The notes: a model not told the origin generated them from the sequence alone. A stretch of DNA of 64,000 nucleotides from Candidatus Heimdallarchaeota archaeon (GCA_011364965.1 RDOB01000003.1:336276-400275), one strand, 5' to 3'; counted from the first letter of the stretch, positions 6,360 through 48,484 are shown. Made by a program: numbers and translations.

Positions 6360-8248
6360 TCTGGTGATTCTGATAAATCTAAGGAAATATCAGAGATTAT
6401 CGATGGAATTTCATTGATAGAATTTAAAATAATCACGGACACTCCTAACTTACTAGTTAGATGAAAAAAATGTCTCCGGAATTTCAAACTAGCTGATGCT
6501 ATACTATTAGGAAAAATTAAGCAATAAACCTTGGTATGATCCTCAAGAAGATAATTAAAGGTGGTTTTTAGATCAAAGTCAAATAAATCTCCAAGAGTAT
6601 CCTCTGAGACTATTAGAAAAAAGATAGAGGATCCTAATCTTATTCCTGGAAACTTCATTGAGTTATCAAAGTTAATTTTAAAGTCCTTTTCCGGAAATAG
6701 GGATGGAAAATCATTTTCAAAAAAGGTTGGAGAGAAATGAAGATAGATTATACTATCCGAGGTCTGATTAAGGGGTTCAGAAGTACCAATATTACTCGGA
6801 AGAGGGATTAAAGTCTCATTTATTTTTTCAATTTCATTAGCTTTAAGATAATCCCTTTTTCCAATATTCTTTAGGTAAAAAAATCTAGATTCTTCATTGG
6901 TTTGTTTTGATAATAAAAAAACTCTAGGAATAGGTCGTTTTACTTTATTTAATTTGTCTACATTTTCCGCATTGACATCATAAGCAATTATCACTTCAGC
7001 ATAATCCTCAATAATATCATTTATGGTATTAGAAATACATACATGGGAATTTCTCAATTTAAAATGTTGAAGTCTTTTATCCAATTCTAATCTAGGAATT
7101 GAACTTATCGGTTGTTTAAAATGGATGACAGAATAGCAATTTTCGATTAATAAGTCTTTCAGAAATACACTATTTTCAAAATTATGAGTAACAAGAGATA
7201 CTCCTGATCGAAAATTAGAGAGTAATTTTAATAGAAACTGCGATTTGGGGTGGTTTAAATCCTCATAAAGTTCTATATACTGAAAAATTTTTTTTATTTT
7301 GGGATCTGATAAAAAAATCTCAATTGCACGTCGGCCAATAAATTCTCCCTTATCTTTTCTACGAATATCCAGTTCATTGAGATAATTTAATGCAGCTCGA
7401 AATCCTTGTGACACAATTATTTTTTGTAGGGTAAAAATTCTTTGGAGATTTCCTGTCTGGATAAGAAGCTCCCCAGATCTAGATTCAGTTTTTAAACTCT
7501 CATGAATGGCAACAATTTCTCTAAAAGTACATTTATTGGTTAATATAAATCCTTTATTTTGTAATTGTTTAATTTCAAATGATTTAATCTGATTTAATAT
7601 GTCTAAAATAAATATATATTGCTCTGGTAACGGTAAAGAATAACGTAGAACATTTTCTCTGTTTGAAGAATTAATATTCTCTAATTCAACAACTTCCTGC
7701 AAAAGTAAATTTTCACATAGAGCTCGTATTTTCTCTGAGGAATATATATTTGAAAACGCGCATAAACGTATTTCTCCCATTTTTTGAGTTATGTAACGAA
7801 GCGAACGGGAACTTGCTCCCATCTCTGCATTCAATATTAAGAGAAGAGAAAATTTCTTATTAGGAATCATTTTTTCTTTTAGATCATTTTTGACTGTTTT
7901 TGGTGTAGCTAATATAATCGGATACCGTTCATAATCATTCAACCGAGCTTGTGGGAGAATTGATCCATTCAATATAGTGATACGACTATCTAAGATTTTG
8001 GATAGTGAGACTTGAATTTCTTTCTGAATGTTCCGGCGAGATATAATTAAAACCTTAGAGGTCAATGGTTCAAGTGTCTGGTTCATATGAAAGAGACTGA
8101 GGATTGCAATAGCTCTAGCTAACTTTTCTTCTGAAGAATAAAGAAAAAGAATATTCTTATCCCTAGATTTCGGCAAAATCAGCTGTTCTTCAACGGAGGG
8201 ATCGAATTTTAATCTTTTCACCATAGAGTTGTGGTCAGATAGACTCAA
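6356..8248 (-). CDS. Hef/FANCM/XPF-family protein with degenerate helicase and nuclease motifs (predicted pseudo-enzyme)
   Basis: It appears collinear with my recalled Hef helicase layout, including IILATPKTVKNDL (family motif ATPQ..ND) and the inserted helical domain. Motif I is replaced by LYSSEEKLA, DEAH by LNAE, TASP by AFSN, and QRxGRxGR by KLNKVKRP. The C-terminal ~130 aa has ERCC4-like spacing but no GDx(n)ERK residues. TTG start. Confidence 0.6.
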   Translation of the reverse strand: MSLSDHNSMVKRLKFDPSVEEQLILPKSRDKNILFLYSSEEKLARAIAILSLFHMNQTLEPLTSKVLIISRRNIQKEIQVSLSKILDSRITILNGSILPQARLNDYERYPIILATPKTVKNDLKEKMIPNKKFSLLLILNAEMGASSRSLRYITQKMGEIRLCAFSNIYSSEKIRALCENLLLQEVVELENINSSNRENVLRYSLPLPEQYIFILDILNQIKSFEIKQLQNKGFILTNKCTFREIVAIHESLKTESRSGELLIQTGNLQRIFTLQKIIVSQGFRAALNYLNELDIRRKDKGEFIGRRAIEIFLSDPKIKKIFQYIELYEDLNHPKSQFLLKLLSNFRSGVSLVTHNFENSVFLKDLLIENCYSVIHFKQPISSIPRLELDKRLQHFKLRNSHVCISNTINDIIEDYAEVIIAYDVNAENVDKLNKVKRPIPRVFLLSKQTNEESRFFYLKNIGKRDYLKANEIEKINETLIPLPSNIGTSEPLNQTSDSIIYLHFSPTFFENDFPSLFPEKDFKINFDNSMKFPGIRLGSSIFFLIVSEDTLGDLFDFDLKTTFNYLLEDHTKVYCLIFPNSIASASLKFRRHFFHLTSKLGVSVIILNSINEIPSIISDISLDLSESPD

Positions 8249-8565
8249 GATTCAGCAGCTCTTGAATCGAAGGTCGTGTCTTGGAAATTATAAGAATAAA
8301 ATCTAGAATCGTATTCAGTGTCTTTTTCTTCTGAAGTATCGTCATCATCCCCAAAGTTTTCTATCCAATTACGGTGTGCTGAACAAGTGATTATTTGGGA
8401 ATTCTTTACTACAAGATTAAAGGGAATACGACGGTTTAATAAGAGAGAACATACCCCTCCAAAGGTACTTCCATATTCACAAATTTGACACAACGGACTG
8501 TTTAGGAATACATCATCCAAAAAAGGTAAGGGTGTTTCTGCCTTTCTTATTTTATGCATTTTCAA
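8245..8565 (-). CDS. Small Cys/His-containing protein with acidic C-terminal tail, hypothetical
   Basis: 106-aa ORF. Its TGA stop overlaps the TTG start of the downstream Hef-like gene (TTGA at 8245-8248). It carries CQIC..C..CSAH spacing and a DDDDTSEEKDTE tract. Confidence 0.5.
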   Translation of the reverse strand: MKMHKIRKAETPLPFLDDVFLNSPLCQICEYGSTFGGVCSLLLNRRIPFNLVVKNSQIITCSAHRNWIENFGDDDDTSEEKDTEYDSRFYSYNFQDTTFDSRAAES

Positions 8566-8690
8566 TCATCTCTAAAAGAAAGTCCATCACTAATTATTAC
8601 AAATGGAGTTTATATATCAGAAATTAAGCATGTTGAGGACTCGCTTTTATGAATATAAAAGAAGATGAACAATATTATCATTGAAGTAAA

Positions 8691-9191
8691 TTGTTATCAG
8701 AAAAACAAATACTCGATAATCTCGATCACATTCTTGTTGAAAAATTGAAGTTCCAAACATATTTAGAATTGCAATTGAATGATTTGCATATCGAAATTCA
8801 AAATCTTACGCACACAAACCAAAAACAAATCAGAATTGATCTTGCAGGTATTAATCAGTTAGATGCATCAATTCATTTTTTTGAAGCAGAAACTCAACTA
8901 CAAATCAGTCATCCATCAATTTACCGATCATTTTGTGATTACTGTTATCTTGTATGCCCAGATAAGCAATTTGACATTTTAGACTCTGTGACAAAAGAAC
9001 AGCAAATATCTTGGGCTGAAAAAATAGGAATAGGTATAATTACTTTCTCCAATAATAATGAAATGCGTGTCCGAATACAAGCTAAAAGACAGGAGATGCA
9101 TTCTCTTATCAGAAAGGAAGTCCTGAGAATGATGAATGATCGGTACAAAATTAGGTTTTCTACAATTCCATTGTGGGAGCGAACTAGATAA
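8691..9191 (+). CDS. Hypothetical protein, possible PD-(D/E)XK nuclease fold (MmcB-like, tentative)
   Basis: RIDLAGI-x13-FFEAETQL followed by FCDYCYLVCPD resembles the D..(D/E)xK core plus the downstream Cys-containing strand of MmcB-type repair nucleases. TTG start. The assignment comes from memory of the family pattern only. Confidence 0.35.
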   Translation: MLSEKQILDNLDHILVEKLKFQTYLELQLNDLHIEIQNLTHTNQKQIRIDLAGINQLDASIHFFEAETQLQISHPSIYRSFCDYCYLVCPDKQFDILDSVTKEQQISWAEKIGIGIITFSNNNEMRVRIQAKRQEMHSLIRKEVLRMMNDRYKIRFSTIPLWERTR

Positions 9192-9215
9192 AACTAAGGT
9201 AGCTAAAGGATTTTT

Positions 9216-9704
9216 ATGCATCAAAGAAGGAAAGTTAGTGTCTGTTCGGACACAGAGAAGAATAAAACGGAAATATATAACCATATAGATGAATTAATAA
9301 GCAATTGTAAATGGGAAGAAGCAGAAAACAATCTTATGTATCTATATCGTGCAATGCCCAATAATATAAACAATATTCGACTCAAATTTGCCGTATTATA
9401 TTCTAAAAAGCAAGATTTTACAAAATCGATCCTTTTCTTGCAGGAATTAATACCTACGCATGATTTTCATGTTTATACGCTTTTTATTCAAAGTTTAGTT
9501 AAACTTGGTGAGAAAAATCAAGCTATCTTGGAATTAGCCCGAGCACCACTATCAGAACAGGAAAAACAGGGTATACAATTTAATTATCTTCAAGAAAATA
9601 GAGTTAGTAAGTGTAATAGTCTTGAATTCAATTTTATGTGTTCAAAATGTAATAAATTTCTATACTTGGTTGAGCAAAAGGTAAAGTGTTTATTCTGCTC
9701 TTAA
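9216..9704 (+). CDS. TPR-like helical protein with C-terminal CxxC..CxxC zinc ribbon, hypothetical
   Basis: Helical-repeat composition, with a C-terminal CSKCNKF..x11..KCLFCS. Confidence 0.4.
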   Translation: MHQRRKVSVCSDTEKNKTEIYNHIDELISNCKWEEAENNLMYLYRAMPNNINNIRLKFAVLYSKKQDFTKSILFLQELIPTHDFHVYTLFIQSLVKLGEKNQAILELARAPLSEQEKQGIQFNYLQENRVSKCNSLEFNFMCSKCNKFLYLVEQKVKCLFCS

Positions 9705-10969
9705 TCATCAGATGAATTAGATTTTAAAAGTTTATATTTCTCCGATAGCGGTTTACAAGTCTCTAATTGAGTATTTATTCTTGAAAGGATTGTCTCATTG
9801 AATTTGTGTAGTCCTTCTGCATTTTGTGGGATATTCAAACTTGAAAAATCAATTTTAACTGACTCAGGGACTGAATCTTTAGGAAGGATTTTATTAGACA
9901 TAATATCATCAGGAAGTTCATTAAACTCATCTTCAGACTTATTTTGTTCCTTATTTAATGAGAGAATTTCTCCTTCTTCGGAATTAAGAAATTCAGCAAA
10001 TTTTCTATCATTTAAGCCTTTTAGTTGTAATGCTTCCTCAGGAGAAATATCTGGAATTTCTTCTGCAGGTGAAGAAAGAGGTTCTTCATTAGATTCAGGT
10101 TTAGCTAATAAATCTCTTATAATTTCAGTTTCATTAACTGTAGAATCCGTGGAAAAGGCTGTACTATTAGGAAAATAGGCATAATTTTTTGTAACTTCAT
10201 TTTCACCAATATCAGAGCGAATAGGATAGTTTGATATCTCATCATATACTACAGCGTCAAGATTGTTTAAAGTAAGCTCTTTTGCCGAAGAAGGTTCTGT
10301 TTTAGGTTTTATTTTTCGTCCAGATAGTAGACTAAGCTTTTCAGTTTGGGAAGGCACAAATATGTTTGAATAGGTATAATTTGATGTTTCTGTAATGTCA
10401 GAAAATGCATTAGGATTTACAACAGGAGTTAATAACAATCCTGGTACTACTTTCTGAACAGCATTCTTGAAATCAAATCCCCTTTCATGGATATCAAAGA
10501 AAAAATCATTTAAATGCATTTCTTTAAGAGTAGGAAAGTTCAAATTAGGAAAAGTGATTGTTAAATTGAATAATGTATTTTTAGAATCTTCAATTATTCT
10601 GAATTCAAATTCCTGAAAGTTTTTTAATACTGAAAGCCTAAAATTTGGAGGTTTAGCCTCAACCTGATATTCCAACATTACTGTGGTTTTATTTTCATGT
10701 TTCGAATATATTATTACAGCTTCCGGGATATTTGGCGTAGTAAAAATTTCTTCAGAAGGATTCAAGGATGCATAATGCAATTGATTTATCTGATTTTTTC
10801 TATCAAACCCGTCTAGGAATAAACCAACGAGATATCCCATTCCTCCGAATAAAAAAAGATAAATCGTGCTTTGATCTACCGATAGATAAAATAAATAACC
10901 TAATAGGAAGCCTATGATAGTTGTTAAAAAACTCCGATTACCTAGAGTCATTTTATTCTCCACAAACAA
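9701..10969 (-). CDS. Membrane-anchored hypothetical protein
   Basis: Two N-terminal hydrophobic helices (FLTTIIGFLLGYLFYL, IYLFLFGGMGYLVGLFL). These are followed by a globular region and a Ser/Glu/Pro-rich low-complexity tail. Confidence 0.45.
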   Translation of the reverse strand: MFVENKMTLGNRSFLTTIIGFLLGYLFYLSVDQSTIYLFLFGGMGYLVGLFLDGFDRKNQINQLHYASLNPSEEIFTTPNIPEAVIIYSKHENKTTVMLEYQVEAKPPNFRLSVLKNFQEFEFRIIEDSKNTLFNLTITFPNLNFPTLKEMHLNDFFFDIHERGFDFKNAVQKVVPGLLLTPVVNPNAFSDITETSNYTYSNIFVPSQTEKLSLLSGRKIKPKTEPSSAKELTLNNLDAVVYDEISNYPIRSDIGENEVTKNYAYFPNSTAFSTDSTVNETEIIRDLLAKPESNEEPLSSPAEEIPDISPEEALQLKGLNDRKFAEFLNSEEGEILSLNKEQNKSEDEFNELPDDIMSNKILPKDSVPESVKIDFSSLNIPQNAEGLHKFNETILSRINTQLETCKPLSEKYKLLKSNSSDD

Positions 10970-39942: not shown

Positions 39943-42657
39943 TCATGTTAATTGAATCGTATTTTTCTTCGTTATGATCCGAATGTATTGAATAAATGAT
40001 ATCCCGAGACTTATTAACATTCCAATTAACAATACTAACAAAATTATTTCTTCTTCTGGGTAAGTTTGTAAGATTGAGGTATCTGGAACTGTTGAAAGTG
40101 TCTTGTATAAGATTCGGATCAGAAGAAAGATGAATGTAACAAATCCTCCTCCAAGGATTAAAACTGACTGAAATATTGTCATTTCTTTCCGGGAAGGTGA
40201 ATAATTGACTAGATTTTTAGGGATTAAAGATTTATTTGCCAAATAACGATAGATTGGGATACTAAGTGCATAAAACGCTATAATTAACGCAATTAACAGA
40301 AAAACGGTAACTTTTTGTTCAGAAAAGGTCAAATTAAGCATAAAACCTACTATTAAAAGAATCAACAGGATAAAGGAACTCAATGAAAGAATTGTGTCCT
40401 CTAAATCGGGGTGTTGAGATTTTTCTTTGTCTTCAACTACAATTTTTTGACTTCTCTCGATTTGCTGTTTATAAGGAGTGAATGCGAGTTCGAGAGTTAA
40501 TAGGAAAATAACATAATAGAATATTTGAGTAACTATTGAAAAAAGATTTAAGGATTGTAACATTAATGGAAGCAATATAACCCCCGATAATAGGTAAATA
40601 ATTGATAAAAATGATGCGAATCGTAAATATAGCTGAATAAGGGGCGAATTGTCAAAATGAGAAAGAATTTTCTCTTTTTTAACCTCTCTCATGGGATTCC
40701 AGACAATAAGAGTTACACTAACAAAGAAGATTACACGGAACATCCATTCTGCTAAAGAAAAATGTGGTCTGAGGAAAAAAAAGTTCAAAAGTGCATTTAT
40801 GACAAAAATTATTATCTTATTTAGATACTCAAGAAGAAAAAATCCCACATAGGTGTGAGAATGCAAATATGATTGAACACCTACAATTATTTCAGAAAAG
40901 GGCAAATTTAATAATACACTGATATCTAAAAGAAACCATACCGTCAAACAACTTGCAAGAAACCCTTCAAGTCCGATTGCGCTTAAAAGCAATATACGTG
41001 GGGGAATTTTGATTTTTTTAAACCTCTCATTTACCGCTTTTCCTGAATTCAATGGATTCCAGTATGGATTCAGTAAAAATGCAAGTGCTAATGCAGCAAA
41101 AAAAGCAGTGGGTTCCCCTCGACTCAAACTAGAGGCTGATGGCCATGTTAAAAAAACTTGAAAGCTAGCAATTAAAAGGTTGAATTTAAAACCTCCAGAG
41201 TAATGCCCTTGAAGAAATTCAATAGAAATTCTTGCTGGAAAATCAAAATTTAAAGAAAACCAGCTTAATAGGGTAGACACATGCCCCGGGATCCCCCAGA
41301 TCGGATCAACCATTCCCTCTCCTCCTAAAGGATATACTCCCACCCATCCTCCCGCAACATTGATTATGATAGAAAAGAAACTTAAAATAATAGCAAGGAA
41401 TTTTAATACTTTTGAAAATATCTTTTGACCTAAGGGGATTTGGTCTTCTCTCAAGTCAAAGATGTAAGCAATTGGAATTAATAACAAGGGAGAAATTGAC
41501 ACAATATGACGAGGACCATATGCCAAACCTCCTGTAGGTAAGAAATATTTGCTATATAACAATATAAAAACTAATGGAACCGTTAGACAGAGTATAGCAA
41601 GAACTGGTTTCTTATTAAGCAAAATTATAAGCCCAATAACAGTTAAAAGTAGGATTGGCATAAAATTTAACAAACCATGATGTCTAGAGAACACCAGGAC
41701 CTCTAATCCTTCTAATATTGGATTGGCAAAATGTTGTTTATCCCAGAAATACTTTGCATAAGAATATGGGGTTTTAAATGGATCATTAAAACAGGAAAAA
41801 TTGTAATACAAGATCAAAAGTCCGTTAAGGAGGATTGGAAAAAGGAATATAACAATGCGAGGAATAAAAATACGAAAATAAGCTTTCCAATGAAAAATGA
41901 GTTCACGAAGGTTCCAAGGAAACGGAATGAGTAAATAAGCAAGTAAGAAGGGCTGAACTACAACTAGAACATAATCACAGGTCATCATAAGCCCACTATA
42001 TAATCCTGCCCATGCTAATGCCGATATTTCCATAGTATCACGGAATTTAGTAAGAAAATAGACCGCAAGTAAAAGAAAACTTGCTGTAAATCCATGGGAG
42101 AACAATGTGCCTATATATACATAAAATAGGCTACCAAAAGCAAATGTGAGAGTGGTCCAGTTAGCTGATTTATGACCTATACCCAGCAATCGAAGAAGAT
42201 CATAGAATTTGATTGAGGTAAATGCACCCCAAATTAATGCTACTATAATAATGAGAAACTTAATTAAGTCATCAATAGCAAAATGATTTGCAGGATCCAT
42301 TCCAAAGAAGTTAAGAGCGATAAATTCTCCAATCCAATATATGGGAACTGTTAAGAGTGAAATACCTGGTGGTTTATCTGAAAAAATACTTCCATTATAT
42401 TCTGCATAGTCAAGATAACTATATCTTTCAAGATCTTCTTGACGAATGGTAAATTCTCCATATTTAGCAATAGCTTTAGTCAACATAAAACGTGATCCCG
42501 GATTTGTATTCGTTACATCCAAGGTTGCACCTGCAATATATATCAGGAAAATAAAGAGAAAGAGCCGAACACGAAAAGATTTTCCCAAAGTTTCGATGAA
42601 ATTAAAGAGGTTAGATATTGAACCCATTAGATCCTTCTGATTGTTCGTTGTAGTCAT
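39943..42657 (-). CDS. Large GT-C-fold glycosyltransferase-like membrane protein (PMT/ArnT-like N-terminus)
   Basis: More than 20 hydrophobic segments. The first extracytoplasmic loop carries YLDYAEYNGSIFSDKPPGISLL, like the ArnT/PMT family loop. No WWDYG motif was seen, so it is not called AglB/STT3. Confidence 0.45.
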   Translation of the reverse strand: MTTTNNQKDLMGSISNLFNFIETLGKSFRVRLFLFIFLIYIAGATLDVTNTNPGSRFMLTKAIAKYGEFTIRQEDLERYSYLDYAEYNGSIFSDKPPGISLLTVPIYWIGEFIALNFFGMDPANHFAIDDLIKFLIIIVALIWGAFTSIKFYDLLRLLGIGHKSANWTTLTFAFGSLFYVYIGTLFSHGFTASFLLLAVYFLTKFRDTMEISALAWAGLYSGLMMTCDYVLVVVQPFLLAYLLIPFPWNLRELIFHWKAYFRIFIPRIVIFLFPILLNGLLILYYNFSCFNDPFKTPYSYAKYFWDKQHFANPILEGLEVLVFSRHHGLLNFMPILLLTVIGLIILLNKKPVLAILCLTVPLVFILLYSKYFLPTGGLAYGPRHIVSISPLLLIPIAYIFDLREDQIPLGQKIFSKVLKFLAIILSFFSIIINVAGGWVGVYPLGGEGMVDPIWGIPGHVSTLLSWFSLNFDFPARISIEFLQGHYSGGFKFNLLIASFQVFLTWPSASSLSRGEPTAFFAALALAFLLNPYWNPLNSGKAVNERFKKIKIPPRILLLSAIGLEGFLASCLTVWFLLDISVLLNLPFSEIIVGVQSYLHSHTYVGFFLLEYLNKIIIFVINALLNFFFLRPHFSLAEWMFRVIFFVSVTLIVWNPMREVKKEKILSHFDNSPLIQLYLRFASFLSIIYLLSGVILLPLMLQSLNLFSIVTQIFYYVIFLLTLELAFTPYKQQIERSQKIVVEDKEKSQHPDLEDTILSLSSFILLILLIVGFMLNLTFSEQKVTVFLLIALIIAFYALSIPIYRYLANKSLIPKNLVNYSPSRKEMTIFQSVLILGGGFVTFIFLLIRILYKTLSTVPDTSILQTYPEEEIILLVLLIGMLISLGISFIQYIRIITKKNTIQLT

Positions 42658-42856
42658 TTATATTGCCCCGATGATAAATCCACATTTAGAATCTAAATAG
42701 TATGCTTTAGTGGTGATTTCAGACCGTTTTGCAGAAAATTTCTCTAAGACAATAATTTAGAATTAGTTCATCGTAAATACGATAAAAAATTTGTGATAGG
42801 TGGAGAGAAAAACAGCAACCTTTCATTCTTTTCGAGACTTAGAATTATATTCAGTG

Positions 42857-44146
42857 TTATACTTTTAATGCAAATCTAGGAACCATTCGAGCAACGATTT
42901 CACCTAAACCCAGATCAATGGTTTGTACAAGAACGTTACGTCCACGATAAAGAAATTGTAATTCACTTGGTGTCTCGAAAACCATCGTTCCAATTCCTGT
43001 CCCAAGATCGACCGAAAAATACCTTCTTTTTTGAACTGTCTCGAATATTTCGGGGATTGCCACGATATGAGGAAAAGTATATCCACCTCCATGAGGAAGA
43101 ATGTTTGCATTGCTTATGCGATTATGAAGATTGTATTTATCCATTCTTTCTTTAAAATTCAGAGTCATTTGAGCATCATCATTAAAATTTGATATCCCTT
43201 TGAGTATGTAGCATGGAATATCTGCTCTTAAGGTAAGAGGATAGAGTTTTTCTTCATTATTGGTGAAAACGTATGTTCCTAAAGCGACTTCATTCAGATG
43301 AGTCAAACCCTGATGAGGAGTATTTGATATTACTTCATAGTCATTCCCAAAAAGGAGTTTTCCTGCCAGTTCTCGTTTCTTTTCTCCAATTCGCTCAGCC
43401 CATTTGTAAAAGTCGTAGTATTTCTTTGCATCCTCTCCAATAAGATAATGAATCTCCCCAAAAGGAGTTTCCAATGTTTGACACATTTCTCGTAAGTTAG
43501 AACTAGCATGGTAATATAATCCTAGTTCTTTTGGGTTCGAATCACCTTTTAGCTCTGAAGGAGAACTATGAGTAATGAAGGAATATTGAGGGAGATTTGC
43601 AGATTCGCTCATAGCCGGATTAGGAAATACTTCAAAAACATTAATAAAATGGTTCCCACTACCAAAGTTCCATCTAATCGGAACACCTTCGATTTCCACG
43701 TCATATTGAGCATCATTCATATCATGAATCCGTTGAATTAGCTCCATTGGATCTGGTTCACCAGTTAATGATCCAACAAGCATTCCACAGGCATTAGGCA
43801 TTGTATCAACGAACATCAATGGAATATCCCCATCTCCCCAAGTAACTTTTCCACCATAACCAATACCATTTTTCCACCGCTCAATATTTCGAGTAATAGT
43901 ACAATCTGGAGCTGCAATAAAAGTAGAATTTGGTTCTAGGCCTAGTGAATCTTGTACAAGATGCATCTTTGCTAAACCATAAAGAAAATTCAAGCGGCAG
44001 AGCTTTGATGCGCTATCTTCTAACGCGGTTGAAAAGATGAGATCTTTGGAACGATCTAATAATTTTCCTCGACTTTTCTTTTTAAGTTCTTCCATTAATT
44101 TCACCAAAATGTCGTAAAATGCTTTACTACCGAATAAAAAACTCAA
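42857..44146 (-). CDS. Divergent RtcB-family protein (RNA 3'-phosphate ligase-like)
   Basis: FGSGNHFINVFEV (RtcB GSGNHF), PNACGM (RtcB D-I-N-C-G region), ITHSS, TPHQG and LPHGGGY (the HGAGR nucleotidyl-His position). The C-terminal LGEIVARMVPRFALKV resembles the RtcB C-terminus. It lacks the N-terminal MPDxHxG motif. Confidence 0.55.
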   Translation of the reverse strand: MSFLFGSKAFYDILVKLMEELKKKSRGKLLDRSKDLIFSTALEDSASKLCRLNFLYGLAKMHLVQDSLGLEPNSTFIAAPDCTITRNIERWKNGIGYGGKVTWGDGDIPLMFVDTMPNACGMLVGSLTGEPDPMELIQRIHDMNDAQYDVEIEGVPIRWNFGSGNHFINVFEVFPNPAMSESANLPQYSFITHSSPSELKGDSNPKELGLYYHASSNLREMCQTLETPFGEIHYLIGEDAKKYYDFYKWAERIGEKKRELAGKLLFGNDYEVISNTPHQGLTHLNEVALGTYVFTNNEEKLYPLTLRADIPCYILKGISNFNDDAQMTLNFKERMDKYNLHNRISNANILPHGGGYTFPHIVAIPEIFETVQKRRYFSVDLGTGIGTMVFETPSELQFLYRGRNVLVQTIDLGLGEIVARMVPRFALKV

Positions 44147-44255
44147 AAATAGGAGCGAGTCTGGAATAATTGATTTTCTATCGGTACATAATCGTTTAAA
44201 AAGTCACGCTTTTCTTGAGGAAATCCACTTAGATATTTTTGGGAGTAATCCAATT

Positions 44256-45491
44256 ATGAAAGATGAAGAGAATGGCCCAAGAAAAAAGCTCCTTAGGGAG
44301 GATGGCTACTGGGGAGTATATCAGGAGGAAGATAATGCCCCTGAAGAACGTTGGGATCCTTTTCAGACATTAACCGATAAATATGGCACTAAAATTGGAC
44401 ATTGCACATATATTAGTAAGTTGAGAGCAAATAGACCAATCGAATACTCAGAAATACCTCTAAAGCTCGTAAGATCAAATTTAAATGACGAGAAAGATTC
44501 TTTTTGTCAAATAGTGGAAGGTAAATTACCAGCAATCGTTTTAACCAAGGATTTAAGTCAAAAAAGGGATCCATTTGTCTTGGACGCAAAATTTGAGAAC
44601 CTAGCTCAAACAAATGCGTTTACAATTATTAATCTGTTTCCGCCAATGGCTAGATACGTTCAAAATAATCATTTTTTGCGTACTGAAAAAAAAAAATCTA
44701 AACCCCCAAAAGGCATATCTTTGGTTCATGTACTTACTAAACACTATGTAAGTATCGAAACTGTTCCCTTGGATGAATTGATCCTATATTTTAATAACAT
44801 CATTCTATCGCTTGAAATCTGCCAAAAATCACTCCGATCACAAGGAATTAACAATATAGGACTCATGCAATTCTTTAATATTGGGCCTGCTTCTGGCGCA
44901 AGTATTTTACATCTCCATGGACAGAGTATGTTATTCATAGATAAAAAAGGACATGGGTGGAAGAATCAAGGTTTTTTAGTAGTTTATGAGGAGCATAAGT
45001 CCCTTTATCAAAACCGAAATTATTGCTTAGGGTGTGAGTACGCCAAAAAGGTTACTATTGATCCTTTAAACCAAGAAATTAACCTTAAAGAAAGAATTTT
45101 TTGGGAAGATGACTTTTGGCTATGTCTAGTAGCTTATGCACCTGAAAATGATGGACAGCTTAGATTAATGCCCAAAAGGCATCTATCGACCTTGTTAGAG
45201 CTGAATTCAAATGAAATTGCTTCTTTATCCAAAGCTTTACTTGCCTCAAACTATGCATTAACTCAGTTTATTAACAATTATGGGAAGAAACTTCATTTGT
45301 CTCTCGATCGCAATATCATTTTCAGACAGCAGCATTTTGGATATACTTCGAAACCACATTTACTCATTGATATCCTACCAGTCCAAAGAGTAGGCGGAGG
45401 TGAAAAATTAGACAATTTTAAATTATCTCATATCTTTCCCGAGGAAATTGCCTGTTCTCTTACCCAATATCTTCAGGAATTTATTATATGA
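44256..45491 (+). CDS. Galactose-1-phosphate uridylyltransferase-like HIT-superfamily nucleotidyltransferase
   Basis: Two HIT-like halves. The first has DSFCQIVEGKLPAIVL and the GalT-type active-site motif ILHLHGQS (H-x-H-x-Q). The second has CLGCEY and a degenerate PHLLIDILP. Confidence 0.6.
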   Translation: MKDEENGPRKKLLREDGYWGVYQEEDNAPEERWDPFQTLTDKYGTKIGHCTYISKLRANRPIEYSEIPLKLVRSNLNDEKDSFCQIVEGKLPAIVLTKDLSQKRDPFVLDAKFENLAQTNAFTIINLFPPMARYVQNNHFLRTEKKKSKPPKGISLVHVLTKHYVSIETVPLDELILYFNNIILSLEICQKSLRSQGINNIGLMQFFNIGPASGASILHLHGQSMLFIDKKGHGWKNQGFLVVYEEHKSLYQNRNYCLGCEYAKKVTIDPLNQEINLKERIFWEDDFWLCLVAYAPENDGQLRLMPKRHLSTLLELNSNEIASLSKALLASNYALTQFINNYGKKLHLSLDRNIIFRQQHFGYTSKPHLLIDILPVQRVGGGEKLDNFKLSHIFPEEIACSLTQYLQEFII

Positions 45492-45922
45492 TTCTTTTTT
45501 CTTTATCCTTTCCTGAAAAATATACCCATATAGAATACATGGGTAGGTTTATAACCTTCCAGATCATCTATGATATTACATTAGAAAGATATTTTGATAA
45601 GGAATTTGCCATGCTTAAACTAAATGATGATCAGCATAAGATATTAAACATCCTAAAGAATCCATCGAGTTATGTTGTACGCAATGAAGAGAATGGAATC
45701 CGTGGTTTACCTTATAAAGAGATTATGAAAGCTTCTCGCCTTTCAGTAGAAAAAACCCTCCTTAGCTTAGGTTGGTTAGAAGGAAATGGATTGGTAACTC
45801 ACGAGTGTGCTGTTCAACGACAAATTGTGGATTATTTAGGGCATAATAGTGTTGAAATTGCTGGTCAAAAGATCGTTAGAATGTTTTATCTTACTCAAAA
45901 AGGAAAAAAGCTCCATTCATAA
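45488..45922 (+). CDS. Winged-helix-like small protein, paralogue A
   Basis: About half of the aligned residues match the next gene by eye (GIRGLPYKEIMKASRLSVEKTLLSLGWLEGNGLV..EIAGQKIVRMFYLTQKGKK). The conserved part begins at ATG 45611, while the track start overlaps the upstream stop (ATGA). Confidence 0.5.
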   Translation: MILFSLSFPEKYTHIEYMGRFITFQIIYDITLERYFDKEFAMLKLNDDQHKILNILKNPSSYVVRNEENGIRGLPYKEIMKASRLSVEKTLLSLGWLEGNGLVTHECAVQRQIVDYLGHNSVEIAGQKIVRMFYLTQKGKKLHS

Positions 45923-46111
45923 GGATAAAATATCGTTATTCGTTTCTTACTTATCCATATAAAACCAAGAGAGGAATCTCCCTAACCCATTTCTCTTACC
46001 CATATGAATATTATAAGTATATGAACTTGTTTTTTACATTTTGGATAGGATATTTTATATTTTAATAAAATCGTTGTTAAAGCTGAGTTATTAGACAAAG
46101 AGGTATATTTA

Positions 46112-46459
46112 ATGACCACAGAAAAAGCTGATTTAAACCTAGATCAGCGTAAAGTGATTCTTGCGCTTGATGAGCCAGCAGAATTTTATCGTGGATATCA
46201 TTCAGTTGCAGGGATCCGAGGTGCTCCATATAAAAAAATTATGGAGAAAACAGGTTTAACTTTAGAGAAGACGCTTCTTTCGATTGGTTGGCTGGAAGCT
46301 AGAGGTTTAATTGCACATGATGTGGCAGTTGTAAGAAAAACATTAGACTATCTTGGCCAAACCAACATAGAGATTGCTGGTCAATCGGTTGTCCGTATGT
46401 TTTACTTGACAGAAGAAGGCAAGAAGACACTAAAAGAGTTTAAAGAGGAAGGTGGCTAA
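46112..46459 (+). CDS. Winged-helix-like small protein, paralogue B
   Basis: GIRGAPYKKIMEKTGLTLEKTLLSIGWLEARGLI..EIAGQSVVRMFYLTEEGKK. Its stop directly abuts the TTG start of the GAPDH gene. Confidence 0.55.
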   Translation: MTTEKADLNLDQRKVILALDEPAEFYRGYHSVAGIRGAPYKKIMEKTGLTLEKTLLSIGWLEARGLIAHDVAVVRKTLDYLGQTNIEIAGQSVVRMFYLTEEGKKTLKEFKEEGG

Positions 46460-47563
46460 TTGGCGAAATCTAAAGCAAATATTGGAGTGGTTGGCTACGG
46501 AATTATTGGTAAACGAGTGGCAGATGCCATAGCCAGCCAACCAGACATGCGATTAGTTGGAATAGCGGATATTATTTCTGATGTCCGCTTGAGAATTGCA
46601 AAAGAACGAAACTATCCAATATATTGCAGCTTACCAGATTTTGAGCCTAAAATGAGGGCAGCAGGATTTGAAGTTGTCGGATTTCTAGATGATATGCTAA
46701 AGGAAATAGAAATTGTTATAGATTGCACGCCAAGTGGGGTTCCAGCTCAGAATTTTCCACTGTACGATAAATATAATGTTAAAACCATTGTTCAAGGTGG
46801 AGAAAAACATTCACTTACTGAGAGGAGCTTTAGCACATTTGGTAATTATTATACCCATCTAGGTGTAAAGAAAACACGAGTTGTATCTTGTAATACGACA
46901 GCATTAACAAGAATAATATCTACTTTAGCTCATGAATATGGGGTTTCGGATGTATTTGTCGCTCTAGCACGAAGGGCTGGAGACCCTGCGAGAACGAATC
47001 GAGGACCAATTAATGCAATTACTCCTGTTTTAGGAGTTTCTCATCACGGTCCCGATTTAGTCACAATTATGCCTCAATTGGATGATCGCATTCATTCATT
47101 GGCAATAGCAGGAAGCTGGACACTGTCTCACGTTCATATGGTGAAGGTTACCCTTGAAAGCTCTCCTTCAAAAGATGAAGTTGTTTCCTTGTACAAAAAA
47201 ACGCCAAGAATATTAATTGAACCTGGAAAGCATGGATTATTTGATTCTGCACAACTCGTCGAATATTTCCGCGATTTGGGTCGGCCACGATATGATCGTC
47301 CTGAAGTTTTTATCTGGGAGGAAACTATGTCTCTTGATTCTCGTGGCAATTTGTACATGATCTATGATGTACATATGGAGTCGATCCCAATTCCTGAGAA
47401 TGTTGATGCTGTAAGATCGATGCTTGAAATGGAATCTGATGCAATGAAATGTGTTGAAATGACAGATAAAGCCATGAAGATCCAGAATGGTTCATATTCA
47501 GGAACATTATACGGAAGTGCCCCGCCAAAAGAAAGATCACTTGCCAGTACAGAACACGAATAG
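46460..47563 (+). CDS. gap: Archaeal type II glyceraldehyde-3-phosphate dehydrogenase
   Basis: NIGVVGYGIIGKRVADAI (Rossmann), the catalytic VVSCNTTALTR, and archaeal-type length. TTG start. Confidence 0.85.
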   Translation: MAKSKANIGVVGYGIIGKRVADAIASQPDMRLVGIADIISDVRLRIAKERNYPIYCSLPDFEPKMRAAGFEVVGFLDDMLKEIEIVIDCTPSGVPAQNFPLYDKYNVKTIVQGGEKHSLTERSFSTFGNYYTHLGVKKTRVVSCNTTALTRIISTLAHEYGVSDVFVALARRAGDPARTNRGPINAITPVLGVSHHGPDLVTIMPQLDDRIHSLAIAGSWTLSHVHMVKVTLESSPSKDEVVSLYKKTPRILIEPGKHGLFDSAQLVEYFRDLGRPRYDRPEVFIWEETMSLDSRGNLYMIYDVHMESIPIPENVDAVRSMLEMESDAMKCVEMTDKAMKIQNGSYSGTLYGSAPPKERSLASTEHE

Positions 47564-47761
47564 ATATTCTAGCTGCTTTTTCTGCTTCTATCTTTTTCTT
47601 TAATAAATTACTTTAAGAATCAAGACTCCTTAATCTACATTCAAGGCCTTAGACCAACCTAACATTTTTCTTTGGAAAAGGTCAGCTTTTTATTTTCAGC
47701 AATCCTATTATAAAAATAATTTATTCGTTTTCGGTTAAATTTGATTAAATGAGGAAAAAAT

Positions 47762-48484
47762 ATGAAGAATATTCCTGAAATCGAAGAAATAATAGAAGAG
47801 CTACTGATGGATCAAAATATAGAACAATGTATTGTATCTACCATTGATGGGTCTCCAATCTTTGGAAAATCGAAAAAAAAAGATATTTCTGACGAAATCT
47901 ATGTTCTCCCAGCTGCAGTTTCATCAGCTCTTGCTATCTCCCAAGGATTTTTGGACTCTACTCTGAAAGATCAAGTCCATGAATATATCGTATTCCAAGA
48001 ACGATCTATTTTAATTGCCTCTCGTGCCAGCGATACAATACTTATCACTACAATTTGTATTCCCAAATCCTCCTTTGAAAAACGGCCCGAAATTGACGCA
48101 TTGGTAAAACGAATTCAAGAAATAGCAGCAAAAATTAATGCTATTGTGAAAACTCTTGACATTGAAGACAGTATCATTGAAAAAATTCAACGAGCTATCC
48201 CTGAAGCAAAAGCAATCATGCTTCTTTCAAGTGCAGGAATTCCCATCACTGAATTATTATCTAATCTTAATGTAGACACTGCACAACTTGCAGCAGTTTC
48301 ATCTGCTTTAAGTCTCCCCACTCGTGTCCTAGGAGGAGAATCAAAGAGCATAGCGGTCACAGGAGAAAAGAATTTGATATTACTCTATTCTTTAGATCAG
48401 GAAAGAATTCTTATGGTTGCTTTGAAACCAAAACATAGTGTAGAATCCTATCTGACCATAATTTCACGCACAGTTTCGCATTAA
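47762..48484 (+). CDS. Tandem Roadblock/LC7 (MglB-like) domain protein
   Basis: Two consecutive ~100-aa units, each with the Roadblock pattern (..IEQCIVSTIDGSPIFG..AAVSSALA..ILIASRASDTILITT and ..AKAIMLLSSAGIPIT..AAVSSALS..LILLYSLDQERILMV). Confidence 0.65.
   Translation: MKNIPEIEEIIEELLMDQNIEQCIVSTIDGSPIFGKSKKKDISDEIYVLPAAVSSALAISQGFLDSTLKDQVHEYIVFQERSILIASRASDTILITTICIPKSSFEKRPEIDALVKRIQEIAAKINAIVKTLDIEDSIIEKIQRAIPEAKAIMLLSSAGIPITELLSNLNVDTAQLAAVSSALSLPTRVLGGESKSIAVTGEKNLILLYSLDQERILMVALKPKHSVESYLTIISRTVSH

Follow-up and report, generated by a model that had tools for sequence, protein, structure and literature searches.

Does the divergent pairing of an RtcB-like gene with the gene for a HIT-superfamily nucleotidyltransferase in an Asgard archaeon reflect a shared function, or only a conserved gene order? 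The pair lies in a window of 64,000 nucleotides (the whole stretch of DNA analysed here) from Candidatus Heimdallarchaeota archaeon (GCA_011364965.1 RDOB01000003.1:336276-400275). A preliminary description of this DNA had proposed that the two proteins constitute a ligase-like enzyme and a de-capping partner, or a joint nucleotidyl-transfer pathway, with a plain sugar-nucleotide role of the HIT protein as a fallback. We find that the two genes adjoin in one genus only, within a collinear block, that in other lineages the recurrent neighbour of the RtcB-like family is an HD phosphohydrolase, a HIT gene being its neighbour at none of 62 loci, and that the HIT gene of a sister family sits in a glycogen operon. 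On balance, we think it probable that these are two functionally unrelated genes, held back to back by conservation of the block in one Hodarchaeales genus, one encoding a member of a distinct branch of the RtcB superfamily and the other a GalT-branch sugar-nucleotide HIT enzyme.

The two open reading frames are divergent neighbours, as originally described, and run from 42857 to 44146 on the minus strand and from 44256 to 45491 on the plus strand. The length and spacing given for them (429 amino acids and a 109-bp spacer) need revision. The RtcB-like frame as listed reaches back to a TTG codon at 44146, whereas database homologues begin at the internal ATG at 44095, so that the gene probably spans 42857-44095 (minus strand) and encodes 412 amino acids. 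With this start, the divergent spacer measures 160 bp (44096-44255, no strand) rather than 109. The spacer is AT-rich and without an Rfam match; because an Rfam scan of positions 42000-47800 returned nothing, there is no sign of a riboswitch or small RNA within it.

Conservation of the gene pair

Profiles of both proteins were searched against 83 genomes of the class. The RtcB-like gene of the window type is restricted to the window's own genus (g1), where it occurs in 19 of the 22 genomes. The HIT gene is on the same contig in 16 of these 19, divergently oriented and 130-965 bp away, with the qualification that in one of the 16 the adjacent HIT gene is an N-terminal fragment, its full copy being found on a different contig. 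The RtcB-like gene is without any HIT gene in three genomes of the genus.

This adjacency is embedded in a block of at least ten genes that is collinear across the genus, with a glycosyltransferase gene and the RtcB-like gene on one side of the divergent spacer and, on the other, genes for the HIT protein, two winged helix-turn-helix (wHTH) proteins, GAPDH, a Roadblock protein, a TPR protein, a GTPase, a zinc-ribbon protein and beyond. Given this block-wide collinearity, the proximity of the RtcB-like and HIT genes tells us no more than any other adjacency within it would. A DUF998 membrane-protein gene stands between the two genes in three genomes (G049, G052 and G054), and in two others (G060 and G061) the HIT gene has given up its place to a nitroreductase gene, with no change in the position of the RtcB-like and wHTH–GAPDH genes. 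Among the genomes and loci compared, none keeps the RtcB-like and HIT genes together where the surrounding synteny has decayed. Most genomes of the sister family f4 that carry the HIT gene have no RtcB-like gene at E < 1e-10, and in the f4 and f6 genomes that have both, the two genes are on different contigs.

Several matches to either protein in related genomes contain one in-frame stop codon (TGA, TAG or TAA), for example G001:C198:10123-11334, with others in G055, G021, G027, G018, G015, G010 and G020. These stops may mark pseudogenes or errors of assembly, or may lie ahead of the true start in a match that reads through them.

A distinct branch of the RtcB superfamily

The RtcB-like protein has no Pfam or NCBIfam match at E ≤ 0.1, and neither phmmer nor a 30-sequence profile found a match among PDB sequences. 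Its link to RtcB reached significance only once the family alignment had grown to 119 sequences. The 30-sequence family alignment showed no link to one RtcB in hhalign; against a 31-sequence RtcB alignment, global mode gave no link and local mode only three short collinear matches. The 119-sequence family profile, by contrast, aligns with a 31-sequence Asgard RtcB profile over 302 columns (93.9% probability, E 1.5e-7), and places every motif in register with its RtcB counterpart.

The fold check that the preliminary description had called for gave the same answer. An AlphaFold2 model computed from 30 homologues (pLDDT 92.5, pTM 0.92) was compared with the PDB using Foldseek, and its top 15 matches are all RtcB structures (E 1.4e-8 to 1.7e-5, probability 1.00), after which the next match falls to E 0.1. 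TM-scores to the RtcB structures are moderate (0.42-0.49). Three of 30 relatives of the protein match PF01139 at E ≤ 10, and in the one that we inspected the match reaches 28.1 bits against a cut-off of 27 and covers only residues 151-252, the GNH...H region. Model and profile alike thus assign the protein the RtcB fold and place it in a distinct, unannotated branch of the RtcB superfamily.

Compared with the RtcB 3'-phosphate/5'-hydroxyl RNA ligases (PF01139, COG1690; P. horikoshii, E. coli and human RTCB), the protein has the same fold with collinear motifs, but is about 70 residues shorter and escapes the Pfam and NCBIfam models. A canonical RtcB of 484 amino acids is also encoded elsewhere in the same genome, making the RtcB-like gene an extra, distinct enzyme, and canonical RtcB is present in 41 of 41 sampled Asgard genomes.

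Members of the RtcB-like family are proteins of about 400 amino acids, all named 'hypothetical', that fall into 987 clusters at 90% identity and 353 at 50%; among the 150 of the latter that were listed, none has the length of canonical RtcB. The family accounts for 375 loci in GTDB species genomes. Its archaeal carriers are Asgard archaea, Bathyarchaeia, Methanocellales and Nanoarchaeota, and its bacterial carriers are many anaerobes from the Spirochaetota, Planctomycetota, Chloroflexota, Desulfobacterota and Clostridia. Identity between archaeal and bacterial members is 42-49%. A literature search for a described divergent RtcB family yielded nothing relevant.

The window's own genome encodes a second, very divergent RtcB-like paralogue (C9:243528-244727; L049 8523-9734) that is 27% identical to the window copy and is found in nearly all genomes of the genus. 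Its neighbours, a gamma-glutamyltranspeptidase gene and a gene for an unknown 303-amino-acid protein, are uninformative. Separately, some matches to canonical RtcB in Asgard genomes sit in open frames of about 1000 amino acids (G006:C1:1559992-1561179, G002:C38:129362-130561 and G114:C16), where profile positions 1-50 match apart from the remainder, a pattern that an intein lodged close to the N-terminal motif would produce.

Predicted active-site residues of the RtcB-like protein

Residues are numbered here on the 412-amino-acid form, conservation is counted over 119 family members, and metal-ligand and nucleophile assignments rest on alignment to RtcB, with residue roles taken from published work (PMC8668186). 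All features in this section lie on the minus strand. The GSGNHF motif, the metal-site Cys and the three further His positions that had been picked out in the window, among them the nucleophile, are all present and align with RtcB in hhalign. Cys103, in N101-A-C103 of the PNACG motif (43787-43795), corresponds to the metal-bridging Cys122 of human RtcB and is Cys in 115/119 members. In the GSGNHF motif itself (G145-S-G-N148-H149-F150, 43646-43663), His is invariant (119/119) and Asn nearly so (117/119), and Asn148-His149 align with human Asn226-His227, which contact phosphate and bind metal B, respectively. His176 (43568-43570) and His261 of an HQG motif (43313-43315), both conserved in 119/119, align with the metal A ligands His259 and His353 of the human protein. 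The putative nucleophile is His335 (119/119), the counterpart of human His428 and Pyrococcus His404, in H335-G-G-G-Y339 within PHGGGY (43079-43093), where the Arg of the RtcB HGAGR motif is replaced by Tyr339 (Tyr in 94/119). Lys411 aligns with the C-terminal Lys of RtcB that contacts guanine. The protein thus shares with RtcB the bridging Cys, the GNH His together with its Asn, a further pair of His predicted to bind metal, an H-G-x-G loop that carries the nucleophile His, and, at the C terminus, the Lys and the strand.

On this alignment, the predicted ligand set of metal A (Cys, His, His) is complete in C103, H176 and H261. That of metal B (Asp, Cys, His) is incomplete: His149 and Cys103 are kept, and the Asp has no conserved counterpart. 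The RtcB Asp position aligns to residue 99, where family members vary between Lys, Arg and Met; Asn101 is invariant but is an inserted residue, and position 97 is acidic in just 84/119 members.

The N-terminal MPDxHxG motif had been reported as absent. Its His is indeed lost, but the motif is degenerate rather than missing: in the counterpart of PDxHxGYG (P63-D64 to R73, 43877-43909), the PD is retained (Asp in 114/119) and is followed by a seven-residue insertion, with Arg73 (Arg in 108/119) in the His position. The protein further differs from canonical RtcB in having a much shorter helical insert between the Cys and GNH motifs.

An HD-domain protein as the recurrent partner

The preliminary description had called for a test of co-occurrence of the two families across genomes, and this points to a different partner for the RtcB-like protein. 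We clustered the neighbours of the RtcB-like gene at 62 loci outside the Hodarchaeales and found none with a HIT neighbour. The recurrent neighbour is instead an HD-domain protein (PF01966) of about 215 amino acids, whose nearest solved relatives are YedJ and YpgQ (PDB 3gw7 and 5dqv; E 1e-10 and 1e-8). YpgQ is a nucleoside triphosphate (NTP) pyrophosphohydrolase. The HD gene is directly adjacent and co-directional in 22 of the 62 loci, upstream in 12 and downstream in 10, and the linked loci span archaea and at least five bacterial phyla. Adjacency that outlives gene-order changes across domains argues that the HD protein is a functional partner. This sets the family apart from canonical RtcB, whose usual neighbours are archease, RtcA or PrfH.

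The scatter of HD-linked members across the family tree makes an ancestral linkage probable. As its sister, the Hodarchaeales clade has a clade of Thorarchaeota and Promethearchaeota in which the HD gene is linked. Within the window's genus, an HD orthologue is present in 13 of 22 genomes but is unlinked. The partner in other lineages belongs to the subfamily of YedJ/YpgQ-like HD phosphohydrolases, whereas no such gene adjoins the pair in the window. A search of the window's genome, which is 87% complete, found no HD orthologue, only a generic HD match of 28 bits.

Other neighbours recur on a smaller scale. Archease adjoins the RtcB-like gene in three loci, in two of which canonical RtcB is also nearby; examples are a Spirochaetota locus and a Bathyarchaeia locus (L090 6104-7995; L112 1729-3204 and 7301-7771). 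In Planctomycetota, the order TetR, DksA/TraR-type zinc-finger protein, RtcB-like protein, PolX (Pol-beta and PHP domains) and THEP1-like NTPase is seen at L099 4785-10118 and at four similar loci.

A GalT-branch HIT protein, linked to glycogen genes in a sister family

The HIT gene (44256-45491, plus strand) encodes a protein of 411 amino acids that we identify from weak GalT and HIT profile matches, an AlphaFold2 model and Foldseek as a GalT-branch two-lobed HIT nucleotidyltransferase or phosphorylase. Its scores against curated models all fall below threshold (PF02744, 18.8 against 29.2 bits; NF008724, 24 against 448; TIGR00209, 21 against 102). The best Foldseek matches of the model (pLDDT 87) are the archaeal GalT structures 6k9z and 6k5z (E 1e-16, TMt 0.71-0.76), followed at E 1e-14 to 1e-13 by Arabidopsis ADP-glucose phosphorylase (2h39, 1z84) and by human and E. 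coli GalT (5in3, 1gup, 1hxq). The predicted structure is that of a two-lobed GalT-branch protein, which bears out the original assignment.

The active-site motif originally noted, H-L-H-G-Q, is H219-L-H221-G-Q223 (44910-44924, plus strand), a GalT-type HxHxQ motif in which His221 is invariant among 25 homologues. The register of NF008724 sets residue 221 on position 166 of E. coli GalT, assuming no gap. Between the two HIT lobes, an invariant CxxC motif (C257-x-x-C260, 45024-45035, plus strand) aligns with the CLHC of the Pyrococcus-type archaeal GalT 6k5z and is probably a metal site. The first lobe has only a single Cys (DSFC) where E. coli GalT has a CxxC zinc site, so this first zinc motif appears reduced relative to the GalT branch. 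The protein shares with enzymes of that branch (6k5z/6k9z, At5g18200, E. coli and human GalT) the two-lobed fold (target-normalised TM-score 0.6-0.76), with HxHxQ in one lobe, the first, and degeneration of the other, and it has an N-terminal R-x-D-P-F...R-x-x-R-P region that we take to be typical of GalT. It is, however, about 90 residues longer, through an N-terminal extension and insertions, is only 16-21% identical to these enzymes, and lies below all family thresholds.

The HIT family is small, comprising 37 clusters confined to Heimdallarchaeia-type genomes. Orthologues that are 40-43% identical to the window protein occur in about 25 genomes of the sister family f4, and in 23 of 25 f4 genomes the gene is followed, within about 1.2 kb downstream, by a co-oriented glycogen/starch synthase gene. 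A gene of about 390 codons stands between the HIT and synthase genes at the three f4 loci inspected (L043-L045), and is assigned to GH57 by Pfam in L043 (operon at 7017-10837; G011:C73). HIT–GH57–glycogen synthase is a conserved operon in f4, and no other clue to what the HIT family does is as strong. Nothing relevant on GalT-like enzymes encoded in glycogen operons of archaea emerged from a literature search. The preliminary description had named proximity to galK and galE as the mark of a bona fide Leloir GalT, but neither gene is among the neighbours of the HIT gene, which are wHTH and GAPDH genes in this genus and GH57 and glycogen synthase genes in f4.

Within the genus, HIT proteins are 43-48% identical, compared with 64-92% for the adjacent RtcB-like, GAPDH and GTPase proteins, indicating that the HIT gene evolves much faster.

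Flanking genes

The window has a G+C content of about 35% and carries Asgard-type genes for a Rab-like GTPase, a Roadblock protein and an archaeal GAPDH, and close relatives of both the RtcB-like and HIT proteins come from Hodarchaeales/Heimdallarchaeia assemblies. Downstream of the HIT gene and on the same strand are two paralogous small wHTH-like genes and the archaeal GAPDH gene (45488-47563, plus strand). The first wHTH-like gene overlaps the HIT stop codon by 4 nucleotides and the second abuts the GAPDH start. Neighbourhood comparison shows the order HIT–wHTH–wHTH–GAPDH to be kept across the window's genus. The wHTH–wHTH–GAPDH order is retained in most inspected genomes of the genus, including those in which the HIT gene has been replaced. 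When the two proteins were compared with the PADLOC defence models, the RtcB-like protein had no match and the HIT protein gave noise only, which offers no hint of any known defence system.

Functional interpretation

In the reading that we favour, with the two genes unrelated in function, the RtcB-like protein would be an active metal-dependent enzyme that forms a covalent His–nucleoside monophosphate (His-NMP) intermediate from an NTP. It would then pass the NMP to a phosphate-terminated substrate, of which the likeliest would be an RNA end bearing a 3'-phosphate or a 2',3'-cyclic phosphate, to be sealed or capped. The HIT enzyme would interconvert nucleoside diphosphate (NDP)-glucose and glucose-1-phosphate, acting as a phosphorylase or as a uridylyl/adenylyltransferase, and would thereby feed or drain glycogen. 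Its role is most likely in sugar-nucleotide or glycogen metabolism and not in RNA cap removal, and the sugar-nucleotide role that had been kept as a fallback is, given the f4 glycogen synthase/GH57 operon, the better-supported reading.

Several observations weigh against this interpretation. The activities proposed for both families are all inferred, and the chemistry or substrate of the RtcB-like protein may differ from RNA ligation, given the lost Asp, the Arg in place of His and the Tyr in place of Arg. The window's genus has no linkage between HIT and glycogen genes, its glycogen synthase gene being on another contig; the genome of the window carries its glycogen synthase and GH57 genes at other sites. 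Co-regulation would fit the adjacency in 16 of 19 genomes, in most of which the two genes share a divergent spacer. In addition, the HIT gene is present in 8/8 members of the genus that lack the HD gene, and the HD gene is present in all five fairly complete genomes that lack the HIT gene. This pattern could hint at substitution of one by the other; it is not significant, and eight genomes carry both.

The same divergent adjacency and the same HIT/HD pattern count towards a functional pair, in which the RtcB-like protein would nucleotidylate nucleic-acid ends through His-NMP and the HIT protein would proofread abortive caps, or in which both would serve a joint nucleotidyl-transfer pathway; in a refined form, the HIT protein would have replaced the HD protein in this genus. 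Such a pair would also draw on the His-NMP chemistry common to both families (for RtcB, PMC8668186) and on the usual partner elsewhere likewise being a nucleotide phosphohydrolase. We nevertheless judge it very unlikely, because the adjacency is conserved no better than that of the at least ten surrounding genes, is broken by an unrelated gene in three genomes and is lost in two more, where the RtcB-like gene persists but a nitroreductase gene stands in for the HIT gene; because the f4 orthologues of the HIT gene sit in glycogen operons, mostly in genomes devoid of the RtcB-like gene; because no HIT gene adjoins the family at the 62 loci outside the genus; and because HIT and HD genes coexist in eight genomes. 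The fold of the HIT protein is moreover that of the GalT branch and not of the aprataxin branch. Aprataxin-type HIT enzymes remove 5'-AMP and DNA 3'-pp5'G caps, and have in common with the window protein the HIT superfamily and a covalent His-NMP intermediate, but they combine a single HIT domain bearing an HxHxHxx motif with a zinc finger, whereas the window protein is of the two-lobed GalT type. The top 50 fold matches of the HIT model include no aprataxin structure, and the genomic context of the HIT gene does not point to nucleic-acid repair. A broader variant makes the RtcB-like enzyme the core of an undescribed two-component nucleotidyl-transfer or RNA-end system with an interchangeable hydrolase, namely the HD protein in most archaea and bacteria and a glycogen-derived GalT-type HIT protein, serving as cap remover or recycler, in part of the genus. 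It is consistent with the HD-less members of the genus all carrying HIT beside the RtcB-like gene and with the fast evolution of the HIT gene, yet we give it very little credence.

Other alternatives concern one protein at a time. For the HIT protein, the top sequence and structure matches, which are named GalT, and the intact HxHxQ motif suggest an ordinary galactose-1-phosphate uridylyltransferase of the Leloir pathway, serving galactose catabolism. This identity seems to us unlikely, since the scores are far under the family thresholds (24 against 448 bits and 18.8 against 29.2), the neighbours include neither galK nor galE, ADP-glucose phosphorylase is an equally good structural match, and the family is limited to the 37 clusters of Heimdallarchaeia-type genomes. 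Somewhat more plausible, although still doubtful, is that the RtcB-like protein is not a nucleic-acid ligase but turns the RtcB scaffold to another reaction in concert with the HD hydrolase, for instance nucleotidylating a small molecule or protein, or hydrolysing a cyclic phosphate. The departures at metal B, in the N-terminal motif and in HGAGR, together with the much reduced helical insertion, are in keeping with this, as are the kinship of the HD partner to YedJ/YpgQ, which suggests nucleotide rather than RNA-end metabolism, and the canonical RtcB already present in every tested Asgard genome. Set against it are the retention of both the nucleophile and the bridging Cys, of three His that would bind metal, of the Asn that contacts phosphate and of the Lys at the C terminus, the archease gene that adjoins the family in three loci, with canonical RtcB nearby in two, and the PolX gene beside the RtcB-like gene in Planctomycetota.

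Implications

The RtcB-like/HIT pair itself appears to be a product of synteny, and the interest of the locus lies in the RtcB-like family rather than in the pair. To our knowledge, RtcB is the only enzyme class that seals RNA 3'-phosphate ends directly. The family described here represents a second branch of the RtcB fold that is deeply diverged, strongly conserved and horizontally spread, with a rebuilt metal B site and N-terminal region, and it is unannotated in Pfam and NCBIfam and absent from the literature that we searched. For the HIT family, the f4 operon suggests that some Heimdallarchaeia make or recycle a glycogen precursor (NDP-glucose) by means of a GalT-type HIT enzyme. The RtcB-like and HD proteins constitute a concrete two-gene module, through which anaerobic microbes of sediments, Asgard archaea among them, may carry out a new kind of RNA repair or nucleotide transfer.

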